DNA of 64,000 bases, from NCBI GenBank assembly GCA_964016885.1, contig OZ024742.1, positions 121,954,001 to 122,018,000 on the forward strand, in the 5' to 3' direction. Position 1 is the stretch's first letter; each line of letters starts with the position of its first letter. A program made the position numbers and the translations under genes. Below the pieces are notes generated by a model, which saw only the letters and a program-made list of their open reading frames with translations, had not been told where the DNA came from and did not search any database. Positions 27,531-64,000 of the stretch are shown piece after piece. The stretch comes from Eledone cirrhosa. Its lineage: Eukaryota.

Positions 27531-27679
27531 AAAATTTGGTATCCAGACAACGGTAGTATTCCTCCAGAAAATGACATTCCACAGAATAGCTAGAATTTTG
27601 AGGTATGCAAACATAAACCCCAGGGGCAAGTATACAAAAATTCTTAGATCATTAGCTATCACCCATCCTCTTGTTATAA

Positions 27680-28630
27680 TAATTGTTTCTACTTTTGGCA
27701 CAAGGCCAGCAATTACTCCAGTGTATGCTGGTACTTTATTTTATTGATCCCTTAAGGATGAAAGGTAAAGTTAACCTCGGCGCGATTTGAACTCAGACTG
27801 TAAAGAGACGTAACTCTATGCTGCAAAGCAGGGCGTCAGACCCTCTAACGATACTGCCAATCCACCGTCCTCTTGTTATAATAATTGTTTCTAATTTTGG
27901 CACAAGGCCAGAAATTACCCCAGTGCATTACTGGTACTTTATTTCATCGACCCCGTAAGGATGAAAGGCAAAGTTAACCTCGGCGGGATTTGAACTCAAA
28001 ATGGCAAGGGCAAGGCCGTAACTCTATGCGTCAAAGCATGGTGTCCGACCCTCTACAGATACTGTCCTTGCGTCTAAAGAACCGCATGGGAAAGAAAAAA
28101 ATAATGATAATCTTTTCTTACTTAGGAACAAGGCCAACAATTTTGGATTTGGGAAAGTCTATTAAATCGACCCCAGTGGGTTTCTGGTACTTTACTCTAT
28201 CTACCCCGTAAGGATGAAAGGTGAGAAAGAAGTTATAATAATGGTTTCTGATTTAGGCACAAGGCCAACAATTTTAGGCGAGGGAAAAGTCGATTAAATC
28301 GACACCACTGCATTACTGGTACTTTATTCTATCGAGCCCGTAAGGATGAAAGGGGAGAAAGAAGATATCATAATAATAACGTTTTATGATGTAGGCAAAA
28401 GGCCAATAAATATTTGGGGTTAGGGGAAAGTCGAATAAATCGATCTTCGTGCGTTAGTGGCAATTTCTTTTATCGACCCCGTAAGGATGAAGGTGGGAAA
28501 GAAGAAATAATAATTGTTTCTACTTTTGGCACAAGGCCAGCAATTACCCAGTACATTACTGGTACTTTATTTTATCGACCTCGTAAGGATGAAAGGCAAA
28601 GTTAACCTCGGCGGGATTTGAACTCGGGGA
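27680..28630 (-). mobile_element. Cluster of about six SINE family A copies or fragments
   Basis: Repeated ggcacaaggcca..ctggtacttta..cgaccccgtaaggatgaaagg units at ~27690, 27890, 28110, 28245, 28380 and 28515. Confidence 0.9.
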
Positions 28631-30773: not shown

Positions 30774-32332
30774 TACGCCGACGACGTGACAGTAATGGTG
30801 TCGAGCACCTCGCAAATCAGGGAGATCGGCACCTTACTGGAGGAATACGAAAGGTTCACAGGAGCGAAGCTGAAACGGGACAAATCCGTCGGTTTGCAAC
30901 TCGGAACGTGGCGAGGCAAACCGATGCCTTCTGATGACGTCGTCGGACGTTGGACGGAAGGACCGGTAAAGCTGCTCGGGGTCTGGTTTGGTCCTGACCT
31001 CCAGGTGGAGAAAAGCTGGAACGAGGTGACGGCCAAGGTGTTTGCGCTCACCCAGAAGTGAGCTGAGTGCAAACTATCCTTGAAAGGTCGAGCGGAGGTG
31101 GCGAACACTTTTATAGCGTCCGTCATCTACTACTGCTTGACCGTTGTGCCTTGTCCAGTGAAAACGCTCACCAAAATGGAGCGCGCGCTCTTCCAATTCC
31201 TTTGGAAGAAACGGGCTCCTTTGGTGAGAAGATCCATCTGCTGCCAACACTCTTCAAACGGAGGGCTGGGGATGCCGTGGCTGACGATGCTCAAACACGC
31301 GCTCAGGTGTGGGCCCCGTTCGGGAGGCGAGCCTTCCCACGACTCGTCTCGCTGACCGAGCTGTAGACCTGGGTCAAGCAAAACCGAGGAAAATAGGCGA
31401 CTGGCATATCGAATGTGCTCAGGCGCTCAAAGTCCTCTGGCAAACAGACCCGGCGATCAGTGGAGACTCCACTTCCACATTCTATAGAGGATTGATTCGC
31501 AGCAAGTGCGACAACACGCTCGGAGAAACTCTAGGCGTAGGGGAGGACGAACTGGCCAGTCTGTTCGGTAGGACCTTCCGCCCGGGACCAATGGACAACT
31601 TCCAAAAGTCCCTGGTCTGACAGTGCTACCGAGGAGCACTACCAGTTCGAAACAAGCTCTACAGACACGGGCACCCGGGTAGGGACCCTTCGAAAAAGAT
31701 CTGTCCGAGTTGCCTGCGCGACGACGAAACCGTCGCACACGCATTTCTACACTGCCCGGGCGTTACCGACCTGTGGGGCTATGTAGAACGACTATTGTCG
31801 CGGGTGGGACCAATCCAGTTGTTCACCGAGTCCATTGTCATGATCAAACCGCCACCCTCCTTCAAAAACGAGGGAGAGGCGGTTTTCCTATGGTGAAAGA
31901 AGTTATATGGCTGAAAGAAGTTATAGGGCTGAGGTCAGACATCTTTATCTTCGGCGAGCAACTGATTCGTTTTTTCAAATATCATTTTGGAAGAAGAATC
32001 AGGATGGAGAGAGAGGTGCTGTACCCCAGCAAATTTTATAAAAGGTGGGTGAATGTGGCAAAGATGGCCCGAGTGCTTGGGCCTTCTCTCTATATAAGCC
32101 TGTAGGTTGAGGAAAAAGAGGAAGAGAGGAAGGGAGTACTCACTCTTGGTGCTCCTGGAGATGAGGGTTGTAAATATTTTACGGGGTGTGTACAACCCCT
32201 GTGTAACACCTCCCCCCTATTGGGGATTTCAATTGTTATTTGTTATTGTATTAATAGTTTTATTTTCACATACCTGTATATAAACATTTGTATTTGTCCC
32301 CTTCTTTTGTGCCCTTGTGGCTAATAAAGAAA
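30774..32332 (+). mobile_element. Tx1-clade LINE, 5'-truncated at YADD
   Basis: YADDVTV..TGAKL..KLLGVWFG..LSLKGRAEV..FQFLWK..GGLGMP, a C-terminal CPSC..ETVAHAFLHCP zinc motif, and a 3' UTR ending in AATAAAGAAA; (CTAT)n on both sides. Confidence 0.9.
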
Positions 32333-32575
32333 TCTATCTATCTACCTATCTATCTATCTATCTTTCTGGGATGGACACACGCGTGAAAATTGCTGGGTAA
32401 GTTCTGCCTAAATTTCTATAGAAATTCCTAACTGTAAACCTTAATTTTTATACCAATTTGTAGAGGGACTGCCAGGTCAAATTTTGATCTGGTCAGTCTC
32501 TCAAAATATTCTACGCCTTTAGGCGAAATAGTTCACAAAATGTTTTTTTTTGAAAAGCTAACATTTAAAAAAAAA

Positions 32576-33600
32576 ATGGCTGAAGCTTCTTCACCAACAT
32601 TCGAAGGAGGAAAGTGGAAGATATGCGTACAGCTTCCATCTGCCACTGTCATAGTAGCAGATGTCAAAGACAAAGGTCAGCCAGAGGAAGGATTTTCTCC
32701 ACGTGCTGACCGACAACTTGACGTTGCCATGGCAACAAACCAAAAGTGTGAAACAATGAACAAAAACAACACTACCAGCGGCACCAGCAACAACAACAAC
32801 AACAATGCTATGAACGAAAACAACACCAACAACAATAACAATAACAACAACAACAACAACAAGACCAATAACTGCAACAAGGAAGTAAACGACAAAATAT
32901 CGTTTGCGCAAATCGTAAAGAAAGCGGTAAGCTACACTCCGGTAGATATTTCAAATGCAAATGAGCTTTTGAATAACGCCAGACAGTACATAACTTTGGG
33001 GGAGAACGGATCATTCTCCATAAACTCTCCCCCAGATTTGCGAAGAGAAGCTGCCTTGAAAACTGTGGTTTTCAGGACAGTCTCAAACAAAACCCTAAAA
33101 CCGACTCAACTTTCACAAGGCGAAATTGAGTTGGCTTTAGAAGATACCTTAAAAGACATTGCTTTCATTCAGAAGGGTAGACTCTACGGGGGTTTATCCA
33201 TTCTGATGAAAGACCAACTGACGGCACAGAAATACTCTGTGTCGCCATTGTATCACAGTTGTTCACCTTTTCCCCCACTTACATGTCGAAAAGAACACAG
33301 AAAATAAAAATCCAAAATATCACACCAAATATTGATATTTGGTGGGTACTATGTGGATTTTTAAACCTCGAAAAAGACACAATAATATCGGTAGGTAAGT
33401 CCTCCGGCGACCTGTTCAGAGGAACTAGCCTGGAAATTCTAGTCCAAATGACACCAGAACGAATAGCTAGGATCCCGGAACGTGTGCTTCTGGATGGGCT
33501 TATATACATAAACATTTCGGTCGAGAGTAGGCAGCCCTCATGTTACCACTGCCTAAGGAGGGGTCACCTAAGAGCTTCCTGTCCTCGGCTAACTAGCTAA
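32576..33600 (+). pseudogene. Tx1 ORF1 (gag-like nucleic-acid-binding protein), frameshifted
   Basis: SFAQIV motif, poly-Asn and SVESRQPSCYHCLRRGHLRASCP (CX2CX4HX4C); frameshift near 33270. Confidence 0.8.
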
Positions 33601-33706
33601 AAACAGGCATTACTGCCAACACCTGCAACAGCAGCATAACAATCACCACCACCACCACCACCACCACCACCACCACCACCACCACCACCACCACAACAAC
33701 AACAGC

Positions 33707-33740
<34 letters not shown>

Positions 33741-34504
33741 TAAAAAATAGTGACAACAAAATAAACGACACACTCAGTCCCACCCAACCTCTCCCTACCT
33801 AAAACAACTCCAGAAACACGCACACACATAACAGCTCCCCAAAATGTACCCCTCCCCAACAACACGGATGAGGTATCATCATCGTCACCCAGTGACGATG
33901 AGGGAGAGCCTTTCCGACCAGTAAAAAAATAAAAGAAAAAACATAACGCAAACGAAAATGCAACAAACACACAAACACCAACACAAGCGACGCAAACAGC
34001 ACAAACAAAAACACCCCCTCCTGCGTAAACACACACAAGAACCACAGACAAAAAGCAACACAACACAACAAAAATGTTACACCTACATAAATACTAACAA
34101 TAAAACTTTAACAGACACCATATATAAAAACCCTTCGGTGGAGACCGAAGGGAAAACTTTTACACACTCTTCGGAGAATCCTAATCTTAAAATTATTAGG
34201 ATCTCCATGGACACACACAAACAGTTAAAAGAAAAATTTCCTAACGACGTAGGTAACCCCTGCGTCAAACCCTATAACCGCGTCCTTTTGAAATGTTTCC
34301 CCACCACCACCCCAGACACTCCCACCCCAGACACCCCCGCCCCACCTGACACCTTCTCCAACATCTCCGTACCCACCCCACCAGAGCCCACCCCCTTACC
34401 AAACAACCCCTCCAACACCCCCATTGAATTGTGCAGCCTGGTCCCCAGGAGACGAAGAGTTGAGTGATTTCTTTTCCTCTTTTAACTTTTCAGCACCAAC
34501 ATAG

Positions 34505-35530
34505 CAAATATAAGAGTTGGATGTATGAATGTACGCGGCTTGGGGATGCCCTGGAAACAGGGCAAACTCTTAAACGACCTCAGGTCGCACAGCATGGATG
34601 TAGTAGCCATTTGCGAGTCCAAGATCCACAGCGAGCGACAACTGGCGCCCATCTTCGACGACTTTGAGATCTACGCATCTCTCTGTCAGCCGGGAGGTGG
34701 GGGTGGGGTTGCCGTTCTGCTGCGGAAACACCTGGATCTCGTAACACAGACGGTACATTTGGACCCGGAGGGTCGACTGATGGTGAAGGTGGAGCCTTCA
34801 GGCTGGTGGCCGCATATGCCCCATTCGGGACACCGCGGCCAGACTTCTTCAAACGCCTGGAGACTTTTCTGGGAACGTCCCGCTCCCTGCTGTTAGTGGG
34901 GGACTGGAATGGAATCCTAGATACACGTTGGGACTATGTGGGAGCATGTCTCGATAGAGGGGTGGGGGTGGGTGTAACCGCCTCAAACAGTTAATCGGCC
35001 GATTTGACCTGGCCGATAGATATCGACTAGATTTTCCGACTGTGCCACTGTGGACGTGGACTAATCATGGCGGAACATCTAGATCGTACCTAGATAGGGT
35101 TCTAGTTAGGAAGAAGGACATGTTAAGCTGTCCACAAATCTTCATGGTTGCCTATTCAGATCACAAATTAGTGACCTGCTTAGTCAACCTTGACAAACCC
35201 CATAGACAGGGACCCAGCTACTGGAAGCTGAACTTGTCGTTACCGACATGCAAAGCCTACAGTAGACGGATTAGCACTTTAGTTAAGCAGCACTTGACGG
35301 GGGCCATTGTCAACAACTGATGGTGGTACTCTCTCAAGAGGGCAGTTAGATTAGACTCGAGAGGTTTTAGTAAAGAATTAGTGTTATATAGAAATAAGAC
35401 CGAAAAGGAACTGGTAGATAAAGTAGAAGAGGAACTTAGGAGTGGCAACGTAGTTAGAGACGAGAACGGCCTTGGACCAGTTCTTCGACGCAAAGCATGA
35501 AGGCTGCGTTGTCAGAAGCAAAATACGTGC
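34505..35530 (+). pseudogene. Tx1 ORF2 apurinic-like endonuclease domain, disrupted
   Basis: MNVRGL, DVVAICESK, GGVAVLL, DPEGRL, AYAP, LVGDWNG, WTWTN, SYLDRVL, YSDHKLV and YWKLN. Confidence 0.88.
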
Positions 35531-36462
35531 AACTCGGAACGTGGAGAGGCAAACCGATGCCTTCCGATGGCGTCGTCGGACGCTGGACGGAAGGACCGGT
35601 AAAGCTGCTCGGGGTCTGGTTTGGTCCGGACCTCCAGGTGGAGAAGAGCTGGAACGAGGTGATGGCCAAGATGTTTGCGCTTACCAAGAAGTGGGCCGAG
35701 TACAAACTATCCTTGAAAGGTCGAGCAGAGGTGGCGAACACTTTTATAGTGTCCGTCATCTACTACCGCTTGACCGTTGTGCCTTCTCCAGCCAAAATGC
35801 TCACCAAAATGGAGCGCGCGCTCTTCCAATTCCTTTGGAAGAAACGGGCTTCTTTGGTGAGAAGATCCATCTGCTGCCAACACCCTTCAAACGGAGGGCT
35901 GGGGATGCCGTGGATGACGATGCGCAAACATGCGCTCAGGCTGCGGCACCTCCACAGGAGAGAGTGTGTGTGTATATATACATATATGTATGTATGTGGG
36001 GGTGTGTGTGTCTGCGCATGTAGACGTACGTGTGTGTATGCATAAATCTGTCGGTGTCTGCATGGGTGTGTGTGTGTATATATTAGTATGAGTGGGTGCT
36101 TAATATGAAGTGTGAACAGACGTGTTGAATGCTGAACCCAGCATGACTCCATCGAAATGTGTCGGACGGAAAATGGCTGATGACCAGTGCGGCAGTAGAT
36201 ACTGACCAGAACTTGTGATGACGTGGAGTAAAAACAGCCAATGGCATGACAAGAGTGGAAGTAGGGTTTTTTGAGGGTGTTTTTTGATGATAACACCCCA
36301 GTGATAAAATTTGCTCCTAACGAAATACTCATGTCTGAATGAACCTACAGAAGTAGAATCAGCCGGATCCATACAAGGACCACGTCTCGAGCTACCTGCC
36401 GGAGAAAGAATTGTAACACGCAATAAATTTAGTCCAGATGCATCACTGATTTTTCGTTTTCT

Positions 36463-37954: not shown

Positions 37955-38675
37955 TCATTAATAAAACATAAATTGTAGTAAGTAACACGCGAATACAAGA
38001 ATATATAAGAAATAAGCGAACAAATTATACTCATACTTACAAACACAAGACTTAGACACTTGCACACTAAAAGCATACATCTCTATACGAATACGCCCGC
38101 GCAGAGAAATAAATAAGAGTACCTGCCCCCAAACCCATACACATTCATACACACACACACATATATATACATTATAATACAATACAATAGGAGAGAACAT
38201 AATTAGAGTACCACTGATGATGTGCAACGAAAGAACTTTGATAGATTATATATATATATATTTATATATATATTTATATATTTATATTTTTATATATTTA
38301 TATATTTATATATATTTTTTAACCGTTGGTCAATCAATGATAAACATTGATTGCCAAATAAATTAACTATGGAGATATAAAAGATACAGAAGCGAAAACC
38401 AACCAAACAGTGAGTGTGTTCTGTTATTATTTATGGTAATATTATTACAACAATATGGGTGGTGGATTGGCAGTATCGGTAGAGGGTCGGACGCCATGCT
38501 TTCCAGCATAGTTACGTCCCTTTACGATCTGAGTTCAAATCCCGCCGAGGTTGACTTTGCCTTTCATCCTTACGGGGTCGATAAAATAAAGTACCAGTAA
38601 TGCACTGGGTAATTGCTGGCCTTGTGCCTAAAGTAGAAACAATTATTACAACAATATGACCCTCCCCAAGTATAA
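37955..38675 (+). mobile_element. 3' end/pLTR fragment of the PLE family at 54-60 kb, with a deleted hammerhead and a SINE insertion
   Basis: caatagg.g.aacataat..CTGATGAtgtgcaacGAAAgaacTT (38214-38238), aaaccaaccaaacagtgagtgtgttctgttat and atgaccctccccaagtata are collinear with 59880-60120. Confidence 0.8.
38458..38647 (+). mobile_element. Full-length SINE family A with a 17-bp target-site duplication
   Basis: A box TGGCAGTATCGG and B box GTTCAAATCC; ATTATTACAACAATATG at 38441-38457 and 38642-38658. Confidence 0.92.
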
Positions 38676-39785
38676 ATATATAAATATATATATAAATATA
38701 TAAATATATATATAAATATATAAATATATATATAAATATAATTTCAGCGACATCGTATTTCGGCGGCGGCCAAGACAAAACGAAACTCAATTTTCGAATA
38801 TGCCGGCAAGCGCTCAATGGACTAGGAAGAAACCAGAGCAATTAACATACGTTAAAAAGGCCAGACACATAAAAATGGCTGTGATGTGACAAGCCAGGCA
38901 GCCGAAAAATTACCTGGACCTTCCTGGAACGTTGAGGTAAAATCCAGTGTGAGGTTTCTGTGACTTCTAAATCTAGTATACTGTCTGCTTTCGTTGTAAG
39001 CTTTTGGTATAATGATCGAACAAGGTAAACACCTTGTCAACAGGTGTCTGCTCTCAACCGCCTACAAGGTTCAAATGAAGCATTAGTGAAGCCACTACCT
39101 CACGTGGTTACCCTGACATGAAGGTAACCCCTGTTTTGACGGGTGCATTCAAAATATGTAAAGGAATTGCAAAAAAGTGTTAAAGACTGCACAAATCGAA
39201 GTAAGCTCTCGACCAGGTTGTTTTTAAATAAACTTAAGCAATTTATCAGTCAATAGAATTGCCTATACATATATATGATGGCTGCCCCCACGTTATCGAG
39301 TACGGTAATTGCACAATATACCATTATTAATAATTATTAATCAATTCTATTGTGCAATGCCTGTGAGTGAAGATAATTTTTAAAGTGAGGAAAGACTGTG
39401 CACTGAGCCAATCCCACTCTCTGAGCAACAGTAGATATCACCCGAAAAGAAGAGAAGATCAACATCATCGGTAACTACTCAGCCGCAGGTTTTATATCGG
39501 AGTTACCCCAGTTTCCTAAACCGGCAACCTCACCAAGTTTACTTGGTGAGGAGGGTGATTTTGGACACCCTGCAGGACAAAAACAAAACCTGACAAAGGG
39601 CATCCAAAAGTGTTGTAAATATGTATATACACATGTACATATGTATGTATATGTGTATATATGCACATGGGTGCATGTGTATGTATATGCGCGGGTACAT
39701 AGAAATAGTCGGGCTGGACACCCGATCGCGCGGTTAAACCACTGGGAGTGAAGGACCCCTAGCCTTTGTCAGCGCATTCTTCTAG

Positions 39786-41264: not shown

Positions 41265-42150
41265 CTATCCGTTAGGGTATAATGTGGGGCTGTAATACAG
41301 GAAAGTTTTGTGCAATTTATGTTTACAAGCCGAAATTGCCTCAGCTTTTTTGTTTAAGATGTGGTCATTGGCGTAGAGTATTTCCACGGCTTCAGCGACG
41401 CAGAGGCCACATGGTCTTTTATTTCCGTTATACGATCTAGCCTTAGCTAGGATCTTCCAGTGTAAATTATATTTGGTGTGGTTGTCTTTTAGACTCCAGA
41501 TATAAGCTGAAAGTGACGTCATATTCCTTCTTAAAGGGTTAAGAAAAGAATGGGTATGCATGTAAAGACGCTGCTTGAATCTATTGGCGGTTAACCCTAA
41601 AGGCCCTAACGGATGTGGGTGTTTCAACTTTACGTTTGTAGACAATGTTTCTAGAGAGGCATTTCCCGGATAGGGGGCAGTCAACCCGATTCTTACAATT
41701 ACAGTTAGTACTAGCTACAGGGTTGCACGTGTTCCTACGGATAGGTAATTTAGCTAAATTTGAAGCAGTGATGTTATGTGCAAAGTTAGGAGTCGTAGAG
41801 TAAGACATTTTAATGGTATTTCTATTAAAAATTGTATTATATTTATGTGCGGGGGGGGGGGGGGGGGCGTGCTTCATAATAAGGGAGAGAAAGACCTTAG
41901 CTAATGGTGTGGCCACCGCCATATTATAAGGTGGGTTATACGATATAATGCGTCGGGATCTATTTTTCCTGGGTCTATTCTCGTACTCTGTATATGCTAC
42001 CTTATCGACAAATCCAATCCGAGCAAGAGCTTCATTGTAATATGTGGAATGGTCGGTGAAAATATGGTCGTTTGTAGATAGACGGGAAAGCCTCAAAGAA
42101 ACGTTTCTTACCAGGTTCTTGGTTATGCTGGCAGCATGGTTAGAATCCTT
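41265..42150 (-). mobile_element. Penelope-like element 3' coding fragment (RT thumb, Cys linker, GIY-YIG endonuclease), frameshifted
   Basis: [91 protein letters not shown]; truncated at a (TA)n tract. Confidence 0.9.
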
Positions 42151-42695
<545 letters not shown>

Positions 42696-42752
42696 TTCGT
42701 TTCTGAATTTGTTTAGCAAGATTCTTTATCTGAAATCGTGTGTTGAAAACGA

Positions 42753-43143
42753 TATTGTTATACTTTGGGAGGGTCATGTTGCCAATAAGAAACACACGCA
42801 CCACGTGCTTTCACTTCAATTTATTATATATTTATAAATTTATAAATTTACAAATCTACAAACTTATAAATTTCTGGTTGGTTGGTTGGTTCCACAACCA
42901 GATAGTTGTTTATATATAGTCATAGTCCTTTCGTCACACGCTCAGTCACTGAAGAGGTCACAGAGTGTGTGACGGAAGGACTATGACTATATATAAACAA
43001 CTATGTGGTTGTGGATCCAACCAACCAACCAGAAATTTATAAGTTTGTAAATTTATAAATTTATAAATATATAATAAATTGAAGTGAAAGCAACTGGTGC
43101 GTGCGTTTCTTATTGGCAACATGACCCTCCCAAAGTATAACAA

Positions 43144-43145
<2 letters not shown>
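42753..43145. repeat. Palindrome A (~390 bp): inverted pair of PLE pLTR ends
   Basis: tattgttatactttgggagggtcatgttgccaataag.. is mirrored by ..cttattggcaacatgaccctcccaaagtataacaata; centre ~42950. Confidence 0.9.
42944..42988 (+). ncRNA. Type I hammerhead ribozyme motif with one core substitution
   Basis: AGTCA-CTGAAGA-g-GTCACA-gagtg-TGTGAC-GgAA-ggac-TA-TGACT; the mirrored arm retains GAAA. Confidence 0.75.
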
Positions 43146-43197
<52 letters not shown>

Positions 43198-43253
43198 GTG
43201 AGGTTTTTTTTACAAAATGAAAAATAACCGAGGTGTTCTACACGGTCGGAGTA

Positions 43254-43535
43254 TAAAGAAAAAGGGATGAAATCGAAAATGCAACTGAAGTCTTATTTAA
43301 AAAAAATATATATATATTTATTTGGTTCCTTTACCGGTTTCGCAGTTCTTCTGCTTTTCAAAAGGTGAGTTGAGATGGAGGGTCTGTGGTTTTGAAAAAC
43401 CACAGACCCTCCATCTCAACTCACCTTTTGAAAAGCAGAAGAACTGCGAAACCGGTAAAGGAACCAAATAAATATATATATTTAAAAAAAAAATAAGACT
43501 TCAGTTGCATTTTCGATTTCATCCCTTTTTCTTTA
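43254..43535. repeat. Palindrome B (~280 bp) with mirrored degenerate hammerheads
   Basis: Near-perfect hairpin centred at 43394; plus strand 43424-43461 reads CCTT-tTGAAaA-GCAG-aagaa-CTGC-GAAA-CCGG-TA-AAGG. Confidence 0.88.
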
Positions 43536-43537
43536 AT

Positions 43538-43599
<62 letters not shown>

Positions 43600-43627
43600 A
43601 TCAACAGATGGTTAAAGGAGTTCCATG

Positions 43628-43698
43628 TATTTTATTATGCGCATTTCAAAAACAAACATCATCATGCAATAATGTTTGTGTTTTCATCAGATAAAACA
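43628..43698 (-). ncRNA. Type I hammerhead ribozyme, mirror copy
   Basis: Reverse complement of 43761-43831. Confidence 0.8.
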
Positions 43699-43760
43699 GG
43701 AGAACATGATATGAAGGCTAAAAAACACTTGTGGATAGTGCAGTTTTAAATCACACCTCC

Positions 43761-43831
43761 TGTTTTATCTGATGAAAACACAAACATTATTGCATGATGA
43801 TGTTTGTTTTTGAAATGCGCATAATAAAATA
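43761..43831 (+). ncRNA. Type I hammerhead ribozyme with an intact core
   Basis: TGTTTTAT-CTGATGA-AAACACAAACAT..ATGTTTGTTTTT-GAAA-TGCGCA-TA-ATAAAATA; stem I 8 bp, stem II 11/12 bp, palindromic stem III. Confidence 0.82.
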
Positions 43832-43955
43832 CATGGAACTCCTTTAACCATCTTTTGATCTTATATTATGTATACTCCAGTCCTACAAACTGTAGAGTGC
43901 TTCTTATCCGATATCTGCATTGCTTTATTGTACTACAATAAAACTCACCTCCTAC

Positions 43956-44170
<215 letters not shown>

Positions 44171-44183
44171 ATATATATATATA

Positions 44184-44347
44184 TGGCTTAGTGGTTTAGA
44201 GTGTTGGGCTTACAATCGTGAGATTGTGAGTTCGATTCTTGTTGTGTTCTTGAGAAAGACACTTTATTTCAACTTACTCCAGTTCACTCAGCTGTACAAA
44301 TGAATTGCGATGTCACTGTTGCCAAACTGTCAAACTGTATCGGCCTC
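44184..44347 (+). mobile_element. CORE-like tRNA SINE family B
   Basis: A box TGGCTTAGTGG, B box GTTCGATTC, then gttgtgttcttgagaaagacactttatttc..cactcagctg. Confidence 0.8.
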
Positions 44348-53917: not shown

Positions 53918-54027
<110 letters not shown>

Positions 54028-54251
54028 TTGCGAGGTTTTTGATATGAAATCGTGTGTCGAAACAAATATTGTTATACTTGGGGAGGGTCATATTGCTAGA
54101 ATTAATAACAGAACACACTCACTGTTTGGTTGGTTTTCGCTTCTATATCTTTTATATCAGTTAATTTATTCGGTCCTCATTCTTTACCATTGACTGACCA
54201 GCGATAAAAAAATACAGATATAATATAGACACAAACACATATATATAGTCT

Positions 54252-54293
54252 AACAAAGTTCTTTCGTTGCCCATCTGCAAAATCGTCAGTGTT
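54252..54293 (-). ncRNA. Hammerhead motif in the PLE 3' region
   Basis: AACA-CTGACGA-ttttgc-agatgg-gcaac-GAAA-gaac-TT-TGTT. Confidence 0.62.
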
Positions 54294-57217
54294 GATATTA
54301 TTATGTTCCTCCTGTTGTATTGTATATCTACGCCATCTTTATTTAATCTGTTTATTTATTTATTTATTTATTTTTGTCGTCTTCTCAGCGCATGCGTTTG
54401 CGTGTGTGTATAGTGTTTGGTGTGTGTTCATGTTTGGGGGACTGTTTTGGTTATTGTATTCTATCTTAGTTTACTGGTGTGTGTATTTGTTGTTATTGTG
54501 CTTGTGTATATATTTATTTATTTATTCGTTTATATTTCTCTTAAGTCAATATTGTTTGTTTAGGTTTTGTTGTTATTCCATTCATTTCTTTCTGTTGAGC
54601 TTTGGCCTTCTAAGTTCTATTTCACTTGCCTCTCTGATTTGCTTATCTGCTGGGTCATTTCTATGTTTAGATATTATTTTAATTTCTATGTTGTCTATAT
54701 TACCGTCATGTTGTTGTCTGGCGTGTTCGTATAGTACTGAACCATTTTTTGGTCCTTTTAGTCCCTCCCCCAGTGTTGATCTATCCTTTCACCTATGCTA
54801 CGAGCTGTCTAACCTATGTATGTTGTTGTCATGTTTCTGCAAGTACCCTCTGTACATCTGATGCTATAGACTACGTTTCTAGTTTCACAGTTTATCCGGG
54901 GCTTCACTTTACATATAATACATTTCCTATTAGTACAGTGGGTTTACTTACTTAAAAGAGTATATTTTGCTGATCAGAGATTTCATGGTAGTTCCTGGCT
55001 TTTCTACCACTTTAATCTTTAAGTGGGTCTTTCTCAGAGTCTTTCTACACTGCTTAGCTAATTTCCCTCCAGGGGTAGCGTACACGAACATGACACTCTG
55101 GTATCTCTGGTTGTCATACCATGAGGTGGCTTTCCCTATCTTATGTTTAGTCCTATCTAAGCTATTCCATGATTTGCTCCTGTATAATGGACAAATTCCT
55201 TTCATGTCCAGTTCTATGATGGTCTTATTCTTCTCCGTGGCTCCTTCGTATACTCTGATTCTGTCTCTTTGGTTGTAGCCAGAGAACTGCATGCGGTTGA
55301 TGAAGTGTTGGATGTGTCTTTCCATTTCTGTTGCGTCGGTACATGCGGGATACGTTCTTCATCACACGTACCAAGTCTGCGATCAGAATATTAAACTTAG
55401 CAGTACTGGACATTGCTGAGTTTTTGAGTATCAGGTATTTGGAGGCCATGGGTTTAGCGTAGTGTGAGTGGAGAATTTGGGCCCTCTCGTCTATAGTGTT
55501 AATCCAGATTTCCGTGTCTAATACAGGTAGTCTACTGTTAAGGTGTTTGGAAGGGTAGTCGATAGTTGCAGTTATACTCTGGTATGCTTTCCATTGTGCT
55601 AGATTCTAAATCATGCTTGTTAGTACTCTCTTGTGGGGGTGTTCTTATTACTATATTAATGTCGTCTACGTAATGAGATTACATGATGAGGTCTATGGAG
55701 CTCTCATCAAGGAGATATTTAAGTCTCCTTTCTCACCATACCATAAAAAGGTTGGCAACGTCACCAGCTATCCTGACGGCAATGGCTGCTCCCTCATTTT
55801 GGGTGTAGATCTTCTCGTTGAATTTGAATATGTGGCCCTCTAGGGTAGTTTTGATACTAGCCCTTATTGCATGTGCGATTATTTTTCTTACCTGATCGTT
55901 GTATTTGGGGGTCCGTATGGCTTTGGTCCACCCAATCCACCTTCCCACATGACTCTTTTTTGCCATTGAGGTTATGGTGGGGGTCTACCTCTTATGGGTC
56001 TACTGGGGCAGAAACGGCTAAGGCCATGGCTGTCTAGGTAGTCAGTGTCATAGTTAAGTCTAAGTAGGAGGCCCAGTCCGTCTGTGTCGACGTCGCAGAA
56101 CTCCACCTCACTCTCACTGATCATCTCCACACATTTTTTCACAGCAAAATCAATGTTAATGGATGTGTATAGTGATACCACGTCCATACTGCCTATTATG
56201 CAGTTAGACAGGTTTTTGTTTTTGTTGCATTCATTGATTCTCCTGAGGAGGTTCTCTGTACTGTCACATACACCTGGGAACATCTTGATTATGGGGCGTA
56301 TAACCATTGAGAGGAAGTACGAGATCCTGTAGTTGCTAGAGATATTGGCTCCGCATACAGGTTTTGTTGGTGGTTCTGTTGTCGGGTCGACGACTGTCTT
56401 ATGGTCTTTGCGGAGCCCATACAAGGGTGATTTGTCATTGTTAGATGCCTGGAAGTTGTTGACAGTGCGTCTGCTTGGCTTTAGGATGTCGGTCCACATC
56501 ATCATGTGAGCGTTGAAGATCTTCTCTCTCCCCTCATGTATTTGCTGTGTAAGTTCGCTCGTCTTGGTGATGTGGGGTTTCATAGCCTTGATGTAGTTCG
56601 GCATGCTATTTATCGACATCCTACCAGATTTATCTGTGGGTAGACACACTACCTCACCATCCCTTGTGCGCTGCTTGAGGCTAACTAAGCCTTTTACAGG
56701 TTTCCTTCCAAGCTGTTGGAACTCTGGTTTGCTTTGTCTTTTAGTATATCGGTCTACTATATGTCTAATCTTATTTCTATCTATGGTGAACTGTGCCTCT
56801 GTCTCGTCATCTATTTGTTGTGGTATACAAACTCTTTATTAAAGGGTAACCTTGTAGGATAAATATTACTCATCTGATATGATTTGTCAGCTGGATTGAA
56901 GAATAGTTTCTCTAAAGAGTTGTCATTATATCTATCGTCATAGTTGTGTGTGTTGCTATTATTGTTATGATTGTTAGATGTATTGCTGTTGTTTTCTCTA
57001 TTGTTGTTGTTACTGTTATTTCTACCATTGTGGTTGTTACTTTTATTATTATGTTTCTTGTTTTTGTTGTTGTGTCTATCATTAATGTTGCTACACGTAT
57101 TATTTCCATTATTACTACTGTGGTTGTTGTTGTTGTTACTCGTATTATTTCCATTATTACTACTGTGGTTGTTGTTGTGTCTGTCGTTAATGTTTCTATT
57201 ATTATTATTGTGGTTGT

Positions 57218-57400
57218 AGGGCAGTGGATTGGCAGTATCGGTAGAGCGCCGGACGCCATGCTTTCCAGCATAGTTACGTCCCTTTACGGTTTGAGTTCAA
57301 ATCCCGCCGACGTTCACTTTGCCTTTCACCCTTACGGGGTCGATAAAATAAAGTACCAGTAATGTACTGGCCTTGTGCCAAAAAAGTAGAAACAATTATT
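57218..57400 (+). mobile_element. Full-length SINE family A with a 17-bp TSD, inside the PLE
   Basis: ATTATTATTGTGGTTGT at 57201-57217 and 57395-57411; A and B boxes present. Confidence 0.92.
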
Positions 57401-57708
57401 ATTGTGGTTGTTGTTGTTCTGTCTATCGTTAATATTACTACCATTATTATTACTATTTCTCACTCTCCTGCTATTGTCATTGTTATGACTATTACTCTTA
57501 TAGCTGTTATTTCTATACGCAGAGTTATTGTCCGTATAGTTGTTGTTGTTTATGTTCGCATTCCAACGTATTTTTGTGAAACACTTTTCCAGCTCCGTTT
57601 TGCACTCGATTGGATTTAACTTTTTGTAGATAGCAAATTTCGGTGGCAGCTGTGGAGATTGTAGTTCTTGTTCATTGATTAAAGTGTTCCCATAAATATT
57701 TATAGGAA

Positions 57709-59815
57709 CGCACTGTCAACAACTTCCAGGCATCTAACAATGACAAATCACCCTTGTATGGGCTCCGCAAAGACCATAAGACAGTCGTCGACCCGACAAC
57801 AGAACCACCAACAAAACCTGAATGCGGAGCCAATATCTCTAGCAACTACAGGATCTCGTACTTCCTCTCAATGGTTATACGCCCCATAATCAAGATGTTC
57901 CCAGAAGTATGTGACAGTACAGAGGACCTCCTCGGTAGAATCAATGAATGCAACAAAAACAAAAACCTGTCTAACTGCATAATAGGCAGTATGGACGTGG
58001 TATCACTATACACATCCATTAACATTGATTTTGCTGTGGGAAAATGTGTGGAGATGATCGGTAAGAGTGAGGTGGAGTTCTGCGACGTCGACACAGATGA
58101 AATGGGCCTCCTACTATGACACTGACTACCTAGGCAGCCATGACCTTAGCCGTTTCTTCCCCAGTAGACCCATAAGAGGTAGACCCCCCACCATAACCTC
58201 AATGGCAAAAAAGACACCCATGGGAAGCTAGATTTGGGTGGACCAAAGCCATACGGACACCCCAAAACAACGATCAGGTAAGAAAAATAATCGCACATGC
58301 AATAGGGGCTAGTATTAAAACTACTCTAAAAGGCCACATATTCAAATTCAACAAGATCTACACCCAAAATGATGGAGCAGCCATTGGCGTCAGCATAGCT
58401 GGTGACGTTGCCAACCTTTTTATGGTATGGTGGGAAAGGAGACTCAAAGATCTCCTTGATAAGAGCTCCATAGACCTCATCATGTACTCTCGATACGTAG
58501 ACAACATTAATATAGTAATAAGAACAACCCCACAAGATAGTACTAACAAGTATGATTTAGAATGTAGCACAATGGAATGCATCCAGCAGATAGCTAAATC
58601 CATACACCAGAGTATAACTGTAACTATTGACTACCCTTCCAAACACCCTAACAGTAGACTACCTGTATTATAAACGGAACTCTGGATAACACTATAGACG
58701 AGAGGGCCCAAATTCTACACTCACACTACACTAAACCCATGGCCTCCAAATACCTGATACTCAAAAACTCAGCAATGCCAGTAGTGCTAAGTTTAACATT
58801 CTGATCGCAGACTTGGTACGAGTGATGAAGAACGTGTCCTGCATATGCGACCCAACAGATATGGAAAGACACATCCAACACTTCATCAACCGCATGCAGT
58901 TCTCTGGCTACAACCAAAGAGACAATCAGAGTATACGAAGGAGCCACGGAGAAGTATAAGACCATCATAGAACTGGACATGAAAGGAATTTGTCCATTAT
59001 ACAGGAGCAAATCACGGAATAGCTTAGATAGGACTAAACATAAGATAGGGAAAGCCACCTCATGGTATGACAACCAGAGATACCAGAGTGTCATGTTCGT
59101 GTACGCTACCCTTGGAGGAAAATTAGCTAATCAGTGTAGAAAAGCCCTAAGAAAGACCCACTTAAAGATTAAAGTGGTAGAAAAGCCAGGAACTACCATG
59201 AAATCTCTGATCAGCAAAATATACTCTTTTAAGTAAGTAAACCAACTGTACTAATAGGAAATGTATTATATGTAAAGTGAACCCCCGGATAAACTGTGAA
59301 ACTAGAAACGTAGTCTATAGCATCAGATGTACAGAGGGTACTTGCAGAAACATGACAACAACATACATAGGTTAGACAGCTCGTAGCATAGGTGAAAGGA
59401 TAGATCAACACTGGGGGGAGGGACTAAAAGGACCAAAAAATGGTTCAGTACTATACGAACACGCCAGACAACAACATGACGGTAATATAGACAACATAGA
59501 AATTAAAATAATATCTAAACATAGAAATGACCCAGCAGATAAGCAAATCAGAGAGGCAAGTGAAATAGAACTTAGAAGGCCAAAGCTCAACAGAAAGAAA
59601 TGAATGGAATAACAACAAAACCTAAACAAACAATACTGACTTAGAGAAATATAAATGAATAAATAAATAAATATATACACAAGCACAATAACAACAAATA
59701 CACACACCAGTAAACTAAGATAGAATAGAATAACCAAATAACAGTCACCCAAACGCGAACACACTCCAAACACTATACACACACGCAAACGCATGCGCAG
59801 AGAAGACGACAAAAA

Positions 59816-59846
<31 letters not shown>

Positions 59847-60123
59847 ACAGATTAAATAAAGATGGCGTAGATATACAATACAATAGGAGGAACATAATAA
59901 TTGCACCACTGACGATGTTGCAGATGTGCAACGAAAGAACTTTGTTAGACTATATATATGCGTTTGTATCTATATTATATCTGTAAATGGTAAACATTGA
60001 GGACCGAATAAATTAACTAATATAAAAGATACAGAATCGAAAACCAACCAAACAGTGAGTGTGTTCTGTTATCAATTCTGGCAATATTATTACAACAATA
60101 TGACCCTCCCCAAGTATAACAAT
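57709..60123 (+). mobile_element. Penelope-like retroelement, inverted 5'-truncated partner of 54025-56468
   Basis: Begins cgcactgtcaacaacttccaggc (reverse complement of ~56446-56468); same RT/GIY-YIG motifs (RYVDN); ends atgaccctccccaagtataacaata then (TA)n. Confidence 0.9.
59905..59946 (+). ncRNA. Hammerhead motif in the PLE 3' region
   Basis: AcCA-CTGACGA-t-GTTGCA-gatg-TGCAAC-GAAA-gaac-TT-TGtT; perfect 6-bp stem II. Confidence 0.68.
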
Positions 60124-60339
60124 ATGTATATATATATATACACATATATATATACATATATATATATGTATGTATAAGGATAGAGAAAATTAAGTGAGAG
60201 AGAGGAATCAGGATTTTATTAGAAGCCAATTGTTTGTCAGTTAGATTGAACTAGAAACCACTTGGTTGCGAAGTAAATGCCTAAAACACATACATGGTCA
60301 TGCATGCACAGAACTTGAGTAGAAACAGGATCTAATCCA

Positions 60340-61804: not shown

Positions 61805-64000
61805 GAATAATGCACTTGCCAACTTGAAGGATGAAATTATGATCGAATGGATGAAAATGAAAGAATCTGACATGGGGGAACGAGACACCCTCCCTAAGAT
61901 CCAGAACTCCAAACAGAACCAAAAGATAATACACAAGACTAACATAATTCTCAAAAACATTATCATCACAAACAAACTAAACATTACTGATTTTAATCAT
62001 CTCTATTATGCATCGGCTAAAGTCACCACTCACTTATGTAGAGTGAAAATGAAAAAACAAAGGAATTCCCACAAGAAATCTACTTGGCAAGAGAACATCA
62101 ATCTCCAAATAAACCTTCTCCGATCTGACATAAAAATGTTAACAAACTACAAAGTAGGTGAACATGTTAAACAAACTAAACTTAGAAAATTGAAAAGAAA
62201 ATACAGTATAAAATCAACAAGTGACATAGAAATGCTGATAGAAATAATCAAGCAAAAAGTGTCGGCCAAAGCTGCTCGTATAAGGCGCTTTGAAAAACAA
62301 TCTAGATTCTATAAGGACAATGATATGTTCAAAAACAACCAAAGAAACTTCTACAGAAAAATTGGCAAGTCAACAATAACTGCTAAATCAATACCACCCA
62401 AGGAGGAAGTGCAAGAATTCTGGGAAAAGATCTGGGCCGAAGAAAAAGTTCATAATATACATGCCCCATGGATAGACAGACAAATGAAAGATACAGCACA
62501 CATTGAGGAACAAATATGGAAAAATATAACAGTTGAACAGTTGCGTTTGGCTCTTAGAAAAACCAGCAAATGGAAATCCCCAGGAAAAGACAAAATACCA
62601 AATTTTTGGATAAATGCTTTCACAGAGTCTCATGAGCTGTTAGCCCAACTTTAGAATGAAATAGTTAAGGAGCCAGAAAAGATACCACCATGGCTAGTTA
62701 ACGGCATTACATTCCTGCTTCCGAAGAATGATGAGACAAACAATCCCCAAAATTACAGACCGATAACTTGCTTGACCACAATGTATAACATTTTAACATC
62801 AGTCCTAACTGAATATACATATGACCACCTGATAACAAATGACCTATTTCCCAATGAGCAGAAAGGGTGTAAACGAGGCTCATATGGCTGTAAGGATCAG
62901 CTTTTGGTTAACAAAATGATACTGGAAGATTGTCATAATAGACACAACAATCTATTGCTTGGATAGATTATAAAAAAGCATTAGATAGTTTGCCACACAG
63001 TTGGATTGAAAAATGTTTAGAGATTTTCAAAATATGTCCCGTTGTCAGGAGGTTCTTGTCATTCAGTATAAAGACATGGAAAACGACACTCCTTTTGAAT
63101 AGTGAAAAGGAATCACTGGAAGCTGGAGAAGTTAATATTAATTTGGATTTTTTCAGGGCGACTCTTTATCACCGCTTTTATTCTGCATAGGTAAAATGCT
63201 CAATGAAATAAAACATGGATATAAAGTCTATGACAAAACCATTAATCACTTGTTCTACATGGATGACCTGAAACTATTTGCAAAAAATGATGAACAATTG
63301 CAAGGGCTATTATCCACTGTGGTGCAGTTCAGTGATGACATTAAAATGGAGTTTGGACTAGATAAATGCGCCAAAGCAACGTTCACCAGAGGAAAGCTGC
63401 TGAAAAGTTCAGACATTAATCTTGATCGGGGGAATGTGATAAGAGAACTTGATCAAGAGGAAACTTACAAATATCTAGGTGTTTGTGAAGGAGACGGAAT
63501 CAAGCACTCGACAATGAGGGAAAGGATAAGGAACGAATGTTACCGCAGAATAAGAGCAATATTAAGAACGGAATTGATCGATGCCATAAACACGCTTTCC
63601 ATACCAGTAGTAACCTACAGTTACAACGTCATCAACTGGTCCAACTGGTCAAGCACAGAGATCCGTAGGCTCGATACAAAAATTAGAAAATTCTTAACCA
63701 TGCATAGAATGCATCACCCGAAGGCAGATACAGATAGAATATATCTCCCTAGGAAAGAAGGAGGACGTGGGTTAATCCAGTTAGACATTGCGTTGAAAAC
63801 TGCAACAATTGAATTATCTACATATCTAAGGGAATCACATGATTGGATGATCAAACTCGTTTCGAAACACGAACGCATCAAAAGATCATGCTCCATTACA
63901 AAAGATGCACAAATATACAGTAATGGACTACAAATTTCAGAAGTCCCATTTACTGCTGAAATAGAAAACACAGAAAAAGCAAAGCAGGTAAAAGTAACTG
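61805..64000 (+). mobile_element. R4/Dong-clade LINE ORF with RT, disrupted; runs off the window end
   Basis: WKSPGKDKIPNFW, NYRPITCL, EQKGCKRGSYGCKDQLL, WIDYKKA, FQGDSLSPL, HLFYMDDLKLF, MEFGLDKCAK, YKYLG and RIYLPRKEGGRGL; stop at ~62652 and frameshifts. Confidence 0.93.

Follow-up and report, generated by a model that had tools for sequence, protein, structure and literature searches.

Three adjacent palindromes in a (TA)n tract of Eledone cirrhosa as stumps of Penelope-like elements, probably primed on both target strands

Insertions of Penelope-like elements (PLEs) are known to include inverted, 5'-truncated copies with a tail at one end and a preference for (TA)n targets (PMC8557442; PMC3846280), and in the latter Arkhipova et al. 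(2013) read the junctions of such copies as self-priming on an antisense template. PMC4209133 reports pairs of hammerhead motifs on opposite strands, 100-700 bp apart, for these elements and describes their minimal hammerheads as weak and cleaving as dimers, and a U3-A8 variant is a published covariant of the hammerhead core (PMC4209133; PMC3088659). Within the PLEs, the Hydra clade is defined in section 11 of PMC8557442 by DKT in place of DKG, CxCX5C, and a conserved E and N surrounded by CxxC and CxH, together with a lack of CCHH, a hammerhead and insertion into (TA)n. The transcription of Drosophila Penelope starts inside its pLTR (PMC2377424), and an anole PLE cuts and extends both strands in vitro from two start sites, the interval between them corresponding to the tail (PMC11167929). 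PMC8969392 and a preprint on non-LTR retrozymes (bioRxiv 10.64898/2026.07.22.740005) provided further context for comparison. The inverted arrangement, the tail on one side, the hammerhead pairs on opposite strands and the (TA)n target have all been published before. The copies described here add two fixed 3' ends, a rule for their pairing, the finding that either arm can be the longer one, variants shared between arms and a sharp 5' boundary.

We analysed a window of 64,000 nt, i.e. the whole stretch of DNA under study, from Eledone cirrhosa (assembly GCA_964016885.1; 3.0 Gb for the whole genome), in which three palindromes, A, B and C, follow one another within 1.26 kb (42696-43955; Table 1). 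Self-BLAST of the window resolved them as inverted repeats at 42753-43145 (A, 89%), 43254-43535 (B, 94%) and about 43595-43864 (C, 88%), and BLAST found no mutual similarity among the three. They are separated by pure A/T spacers of 46 bp (A-B) and about 60-62 bp (B-C) within a long (TA)n region, which bears out the three unrelated palindromes with A/T separators described in the first-pass annotation. A one-sided tail outside each palindrome (56 nt in A, 61 nt in B and 81 nt in C), absent from that description, extends the unit to its present limits, and the additional 5' part of the tail-less arm of C forms the non-palindromic centre of this palindrome.

Table 1. Features of the three-element unit and of its (TA)n flanks, in window coordinates
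Feature	Position	Strand	Remarks
(TA)n tract, left flank of A	42150-42695		Borders the 5'-truncated end of a Hydra-type PLE fragment as well
Element A, tail-bearing arm	42696-42942	-	Family positions about -237 to 0; 3' half of the hammerhead only
A tail	42696-42752	-	Coding; codons 9-27 of the family ORF
Element A, tail-less arm	42943-43145	+	Family positions -251 to -57; starts at the edge of hammerhead stem I
A hammerhead	42944-42988	+	Stem I, CUGAAGA, 6-bp stem II, GGAA (A13G), loop GGAC, UA
(A)n(TA)n spacer A-B	43146-43191		46 bp
Element B, tail-bearing arm	43192-43393	-	Family positions -202 to 0; tail 43192-43252; hammerhead 43328-43365
Element B, tail-less arm	43394-43535	+	Family positions -204 to -61; hammerhead 43424-43461, U3-A8 core, palindromic CCGG loop
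(TA)n spacer B-C	43536-43594		About 60 bp
Element C, tail-less arm	43595-43753	-	Family positions -249 to -81; hammerhead 43628-43698
Element C, tail-bearing arm	43757-43955	+	Family positions -198 to 0; hammerhead 43761-43831 (CUGAUGA, TGCGCA loop); tail 43875-43955
(TA)n tract, right flank of C	43956-44184		Flank

Several other repeats were observed in the window. The minus strand of 41265-42149 carries a 5'-truncated Hydra-type PLE of another family, with ~42% amino-acid identity to the endonuclease of C, which abuts the same (TA)n tract and is the fourth PLE at the site; an initial Naiad identity was dropped for this fragment, now assigned to the Hydra type by its CxCX5C linker. A 6.2-kb tail-out inverted pair at 53974-60176, with a tail on its left arm only, belongs to a relative of A among the Neptune-type families; in stem II of its hammerhead, two pairs are changed on both sides compared with A (by eye), and its tail encodes an N-terminus similar to that of A. 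A tRNA-like head lies at 44177-44250 (Rfam tRNA, 28.1 bits), and a dispersed repeat of ~190 bp, probably representing SINEs, occurs at many places (e.g. 27671-28625, 38441-38654 and 57218-57402), interrupting an A-related element at 38177-38680 and, elsewhere in the genome, the C tail of locus L152. Remnants of non-LTR retrotransposon ORFs (pieces of a gag-like zinc knuckle, of endonuclease and of RT) occupy 31683-36045 and 61806-62654, accompanied by a 413-bp direct repeat (30895/35528).

Searches of the genome with the arms drew on the best 40 scored candidates each, out of 76 to 1183, and on 30 loci each; the family samples are thus ranked by score and all copy counts are lower bounds. The copies of A, B and C recovered in this way have variable centres and the longer ones run into PLE ORFs, as had been predicted for a BLAST of the arms; many copies are single-armed. 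Judged from these copies, each palindrome is a tail-out inverted pair of a PLE terminal module (pLTR), A and B corresponding to two Neptune-type families and C to a Hydra-type family, labels that derive from motifs (for the Neptune clade, a CX2-5CxxC linker ahead of the EN and CCHH within it).

For A, four copies (L091, L092, L097 and L110) extend into an ORF combining RT, CX4CxxC and GIY-YIG, in which GIY-YIG reached a Pfam E-value of 1.9e-4 (22.1 bits for a cut-off of 22.6), RVT_1 gave no Pfam match and the RT motifs were recognised by eye; the linker reads CIDKKCITC and the EN holds two Cys and two His (CCHH, by eye). At L101 and L110 the A module continues straight into this ORF, whose ATG lies at -81, so that the A tail is coding. 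The pLTR lies upstream of the ORF, in tandem or partial tandem, at L101-L107, L109, L110 and L113, with a head-to-tail array of the full coding unit of about 4.06 kb at L104-L106. For B, copies L093, L230 and L270 reach an ORF with RT, GIY-YIG, DKG and CX4CxxC (linker CGRSNCGTC; two Cys and two His in the EN, CCHH, by eye), in which RVT_1 scored just below the Pfam cut-off (E 1.3e-6, 28.7 bits for 29.6) and GIY-YIG above it (E 2.1e-6); a PDB sequence search with this ORF returned 0 matches. Of 13 extended B loci, five (L269, L270, L272, L275 and L277) have the B module immediately ahead of the ORF, its tail ending 28 nt before an ATG; a coding role of the B tail was dropped. For C, copies L094, L170, L249 and L259 lead into an ORF with DKT (HSDKT), CxCX5C (CNCRIKNKC), CxxC/CxH (CNLC, CLH) and no CCHH, all recognised by eye, and near its N-terminus RLRWIA, i.e. 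RW without the K of the RWK motif of the Hydra clade; Pfam gave no match in this ORF, in any Hydra-type ORF or in the PLE fragments of the window. Of the C module, only the tail precedes the ORF, in 4 of 25 loci (L249, L251, L252 and L254).

These families display the variable 5' truncation, adjacent inverted copy, one-sided tail and pLTR hammerhead that are features of PLEs. Short, palindromic, high-copy and TA-flanked sequences might be taken for MITEs, or non-autonomous DNA transposons with TA target duplications, but variable centres, asymmetric ends, common single-arm copies and continuations into RT/GIY-YIG ORFs leave this interpretation a vanishingly small probability. The retro-origin preferred over MITEs in the first-pass annotation is supported by the same variable centres and ORF extensions and by conserved ribozyme cores.

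Family B also consists of two overlapping frames, an N-terminal ORF and an RT-EN ORF in the -1 frame, in all copies shown (L219-L243 and L269-L281), with T TTT TTA in phase within the overlap. Containing this classic slippery heptamer, family B is a candidate for programmed -1 frameshifting in an EN+ PLE, as read from its sequence; no prior report of ribosomal frameshift in Neptune/Penelope-like elements was found in the literature searched. In addition, the two B arms of the window differ by a T-run/A-run micro-inversion (43308-43320 vs 43479-43493), as at many B loci, A-run or mixed forms being carried by 18 of 22 tail-less B arms vs 8 of 38 tail arms, the latter having been selected for the T-run. 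The tails of B and C, though from different clades, end in a similar word, AAAA-CTCAC-T-CTA (by eye).

Arm ends were placed against a single natural reference copy per family, and duplicated loci were dropped before counting. Each family shows two fixed 3' ends (0 and -56 in A, 0 and -61 in B, 0 and -81 in C), and where both arms meet inside the reference span, an arm with a tail is paired with a tail-less one in 29 of 29 insertions of A, 18 of 18 of B and 25 of 28 of C. As for the other three of C, the tail arm was disrupted by a later insertion at L152 and L169, and L023 is tail/tail. The B sample and half of the C loci were fetched with tail-containing queries, for which tail-less/tail-less pairs are invisible. 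Genome queries lacking the tail gave no candidates for B, nor did a short one for C, although both sequences occur in the genome, and these blanks carry no weight. A tail-free A sample of 30 loci comprised 28 distinct insertions, 19 of them with both ends visible, and 18 of these 19 were mixed and one tail/tail (P 4e-5 under independence). The tail/tail insertions are two, L023 and L132.

Of 75 insertions, 33 have a tail-less arm that reaches further 5' and 19 a tail arm that does so, the two arms being level in 23. The arms of one insertion diverge by 1.1% in A and 1.6% in C, less than the 3.3% and 3.9%, respectively, measured between loci, and at diagnostic A sites the two arms agree in 167 of 177 cases, where 103 would be expected. 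B arms are no closer within than between loci (5.0% vs 5.35%), values that include the T-run/A-run micro-inversion, to which we attribute the missing gap. Such shared variants could also reflect gene conversion between arms or a single source active at a time. The arms mostly meet with an overlap of 0-7 nt or with a few to tens of added bases.

Building on the family identity, variable centres, two 3' ends, pairing, shared arm variants and local clustering observed in the copies, we read the locus, with a probability of about 0.88, as three independent 5'-truncated PLE insertions in one (TA)n tract, organised in inverted pairs that were likely primed on both target strands. The priming steps can be reconstructed from the genomic copies as follows. 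The PLE enzyme would nick both target strands and reverse transcription would be primed twice, by one nicked strand at an inner start site and by the other at an outer one, the tail being the stretch between the two. Both primings would probably take place on the same RNA, or on RNAs of one source, and both cDNAs would stop after 140-250 nt before their head-to-head joining, either through microhomology of 0-7 nt or with the addition of a few bases. On both sides of each insertion (TA)n would remain, a continuing target for the next PLE.

A second possibility retains the PLE origin and derives the inverted arm from self-priming or fold-back of antisense RNA or of the first cDNA, as proposed for rotifer PLEs (PMC3846280). 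It would account for variants common to both arms, and junctions often fall at short self-complementary words (e.g. CATATG in C and CAGTCACTG in A). However, the longer arm is often tail-less while the shorter one has the tail (L067, L088, L091, L139 and L153), the reverse being common too (19 vs the 33 above), and since a copied strand cannot hold sequence absent from its template, a single fold-back is unable to explain these arms; we consider this origin unlikely. The difficulty of assembling palindromes between long (TA)n tracts also raises the question of artefacts from fold-back long reads. Such artefacts would be symmetric, with ends anywhere, whereas the inner and outer ends are here fixed for each family and the tail is one-sided; moreover, several positions distinguish the two arms and the same rule is followed by 75 other pairs, which makes an assembly origin very improbable.

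The 5' ends of the arms pile up at -324 to -299 in A (23 ends), -213 to -201 in B (37) and -258 to -253 in C (23), with a sharp thinning upstream, the density at the boundary exceeding that just upstream 13-, 54- and 17-fold, respectively; B and C queries required arms to about -200, so that only the upstream edge of the boundary is informative. The partner arm passes beyond it in 2 of 42 insertions (L008 and L128). A smaller pile of A ends at -251 to -249 coincides with the stem I edge, where the A copy of the window starts. The boundary lies 40-80 nt upstream of the ribozyme core, and hammerhead cleavage was rejected as its source because the cleavage sites (~-210 in A, -141 in B and -132 in C) are well downstream of the pile-ups. 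Inferred from these copies, the combination of two fixed 3' ends, pairing, either arm being longer, shared variants and a sharp 5' boundary favours twin priming on a short leader RNA.

More tentatively, and at somewhat less than even odds in our view, the stumps would be twin-primed strong-stop products, in which each cDNA extends to a fixed 5' end of the RNA and runs off there. A PLE dimer would bind its own RNA leader, with one strand primed at the inner site and the other at the outer, and the RNA 5' end would correspond to the transcription start of the pLTR, at about -310 (A), -213 (B) and -258 (C). The pile-ups at the boundary and the rarity of partner arms beyond it speak for this reading. 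The word beginning at -305 in A resembles a YY1 site. Against such a transcription start, no upstream pLTR ends at the boundary in the 14 near-full-length copies (-502, -378, -250, -243 and -174 in A; -512, -627 and three beyond -699 in B; -72, -49, -42 and -29 in C), and in C the boundary coincides with a self-complementary AT word, which counts against the strong-stop reading. As Neptune-type and Hydra-type families follow one rule, palindromic stumps would, if this reading were true, allow PLE start sites and transcription starts to be mapped with nothing but a genome sequence. No prior statement of the strong-stop model or of the one-tail pairing rule was found in the literature searched, largely the main texts of non-subscription papers.

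The succession of three insertions was set against a background of forty arbitrary 10-kb stretches (400 kb), which held 277 (TA)n tracts of at least 20 bp and 7 insertions of the three families, extrapolating with wide error to ~50,000 insertions genome-wide. Relative to this background of 7 events, insertions of another family were enriched within the 3.2-kb locus (16 vs 4.0 expected over 128 loci; rate ratio 3.9, P 0.0016) and more closely still within 300 bp (8 at 128 loci; rate ratio 8.9, P 8e-5), a clustering that may partly reflect clumped (TA)n tracts. The A-B-C triple is a pile-up of independent insertions and not a designed unit, uncommon but expected from the shared (TA)n targeting. 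A composite moved together, or a unit selected as a source of dsRNA or small RNA, could be suspected from the very stable predicted hairpins and from the recurrence of the B-C adjacency at L008 and L171, where the two adjoin at 53-61 bp, tail-less end to tail-less end. Yet B and C have other centres and other variants there and were thus inserted separately, none of the 128 loci held a further A-B-C triple, the enrichment of neighbours extends to all three families in general and the ribozyme of A is damaged, all of which renders a composite or selected unit very unlikely. Among the independent insertions, arm divergence suggests that A is the oldest, its arms differing over about 180 nt by 6 substitutions and one 8-bp indel, for 1-2 substitutions in C and none in B except the micro-inversion.

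Outward-facing hammerheads with a CTGANGA-like core had been claimed for every palindrome. In the descriptor scan, B (UUGAAAA, CCGG) and C (CUGAUGA, TGCGCA) each showed a type I hammerhead facing outward in either arm, but A has only one whole motif, with GAAA changed to GGAA, the sole such arm among 82 family arms and predicted from its sequence to be inactive; the other A arm keeps only the 3' half because the inversion junction removes CUGANGA. The claimed core is canonical in C, whereas that of B is the U3-A8 covariant. A stricter descriptor matched both B motifs, with 0 matches in 300 shuffles of the locus, and returned 8 matches in 400 kb of arbitrary genome vs 0 in 3 shuffles; it missed C, whose stem II opens with only 3 A-U pairs followed by a mismatch. 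Rfam reported no family at gathering score in the window, and its sub-threshold matches at the locus were generic miRNA hairpins only. Among the retrieved family copies, the core is intact in 74 of 82 arms of A, 44 of 46 of B and 63 of 66 of C. The hammerheads would be passengers of the pLTR. Other hammerhead-bearing repeat families were encountered at L205:5300-6400, as direct and inverted copies ~470 bp apart, and at L010 and L008, showing that further families of PLEs or retrozyme-like repeats exist in this genome.

According to fold prediction, 89-93% of each palindrome is paired and forcing the hammerhead fold costs 47 (A), 69 (B) and 98 kcal/mol (C), an in silico support for the suggestion that the hairpin competes with ribozyme folding. 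Whichever way read-through proceeds, the antisense arm would be transcribed first, so that the hairpin is predicted to trap the hammerheads. If transcribed, such insertions would provide a large pool of near-perfect dsRNA stems of 130-190 bp, putative small-RNA or ADAR substrates as suggested in the first-pass annotation.

The locus itself, three dead retroelement stumps, is of little weight. For genome annotation, roughly 50,000 such insertions could be misfiled as MITEs or miRNA-like hairpins, and for the mechanism, the one-tail pairing rule and the sharp 5' boundary offer two testable predictions on the inverted ends and tails of PLEs.

In L1 twin priming, the second target strand primes on the RNA and gives an inversion, the two cDNAs copying different parts of the RNA. 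Here, one and the same part of the RNA would be copied twice, once from each of two fixed start sites, resulting in a palindrome. The EN+ PLE insertions documented by Craig et al. (2021, PMC8557442) and Arkhipova et al. (2013, PMC3846280) share the head-to-head pLTR pair, the one-end tail, the pLTR hammerhead, the (TA)n target and a pLTR/tail that overlaps the start of the ORF or leads into it. They differ by tails of 30-40 nt, against 56, 61 and 81 nt here, where both arms are ORF-less stumps, three families from two clades lie within 1.26 kb, and the pairing rule and 5' boundary are counted. With the minimal PLE hammerheads of Cervera and de la Pena (2014, PMC4209133), the present motifs share type I topology, a helix I of 4-6 bp, a tiny palindromic helix III (CCGG, TGCGCA), the U3-A8 core and opposite-strand pairs, but the A loop (GGAC/GAAC) is not strictly palindromic and helix II of C is long, bulged and opens with A-U instead of the usual G-C. 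The non-LTR retrozymes of bioRxiv 10.64898/2026.07.22.740005 are likewise short non-coding repeats with pLTR-related type I hammerheads, organised as head-to-tail tandems, whereas ours are inverted pairs continuous with coding PLEs; a retrozyme identity was set aside, the sole tandem seen being the coding unit of A. Finally, anole Poseidon PAc (Frangieh et al. 2024, PMC11167929) has the same two RT start sites near the ORF start and an AT-rich target, but in that study neither a difference in start site between strands nor homology at the start was seen in vitro, whereas the two-arm copies of Eledone cirrhosa pair one site with the other and a short AT word matching the target follows each of them.
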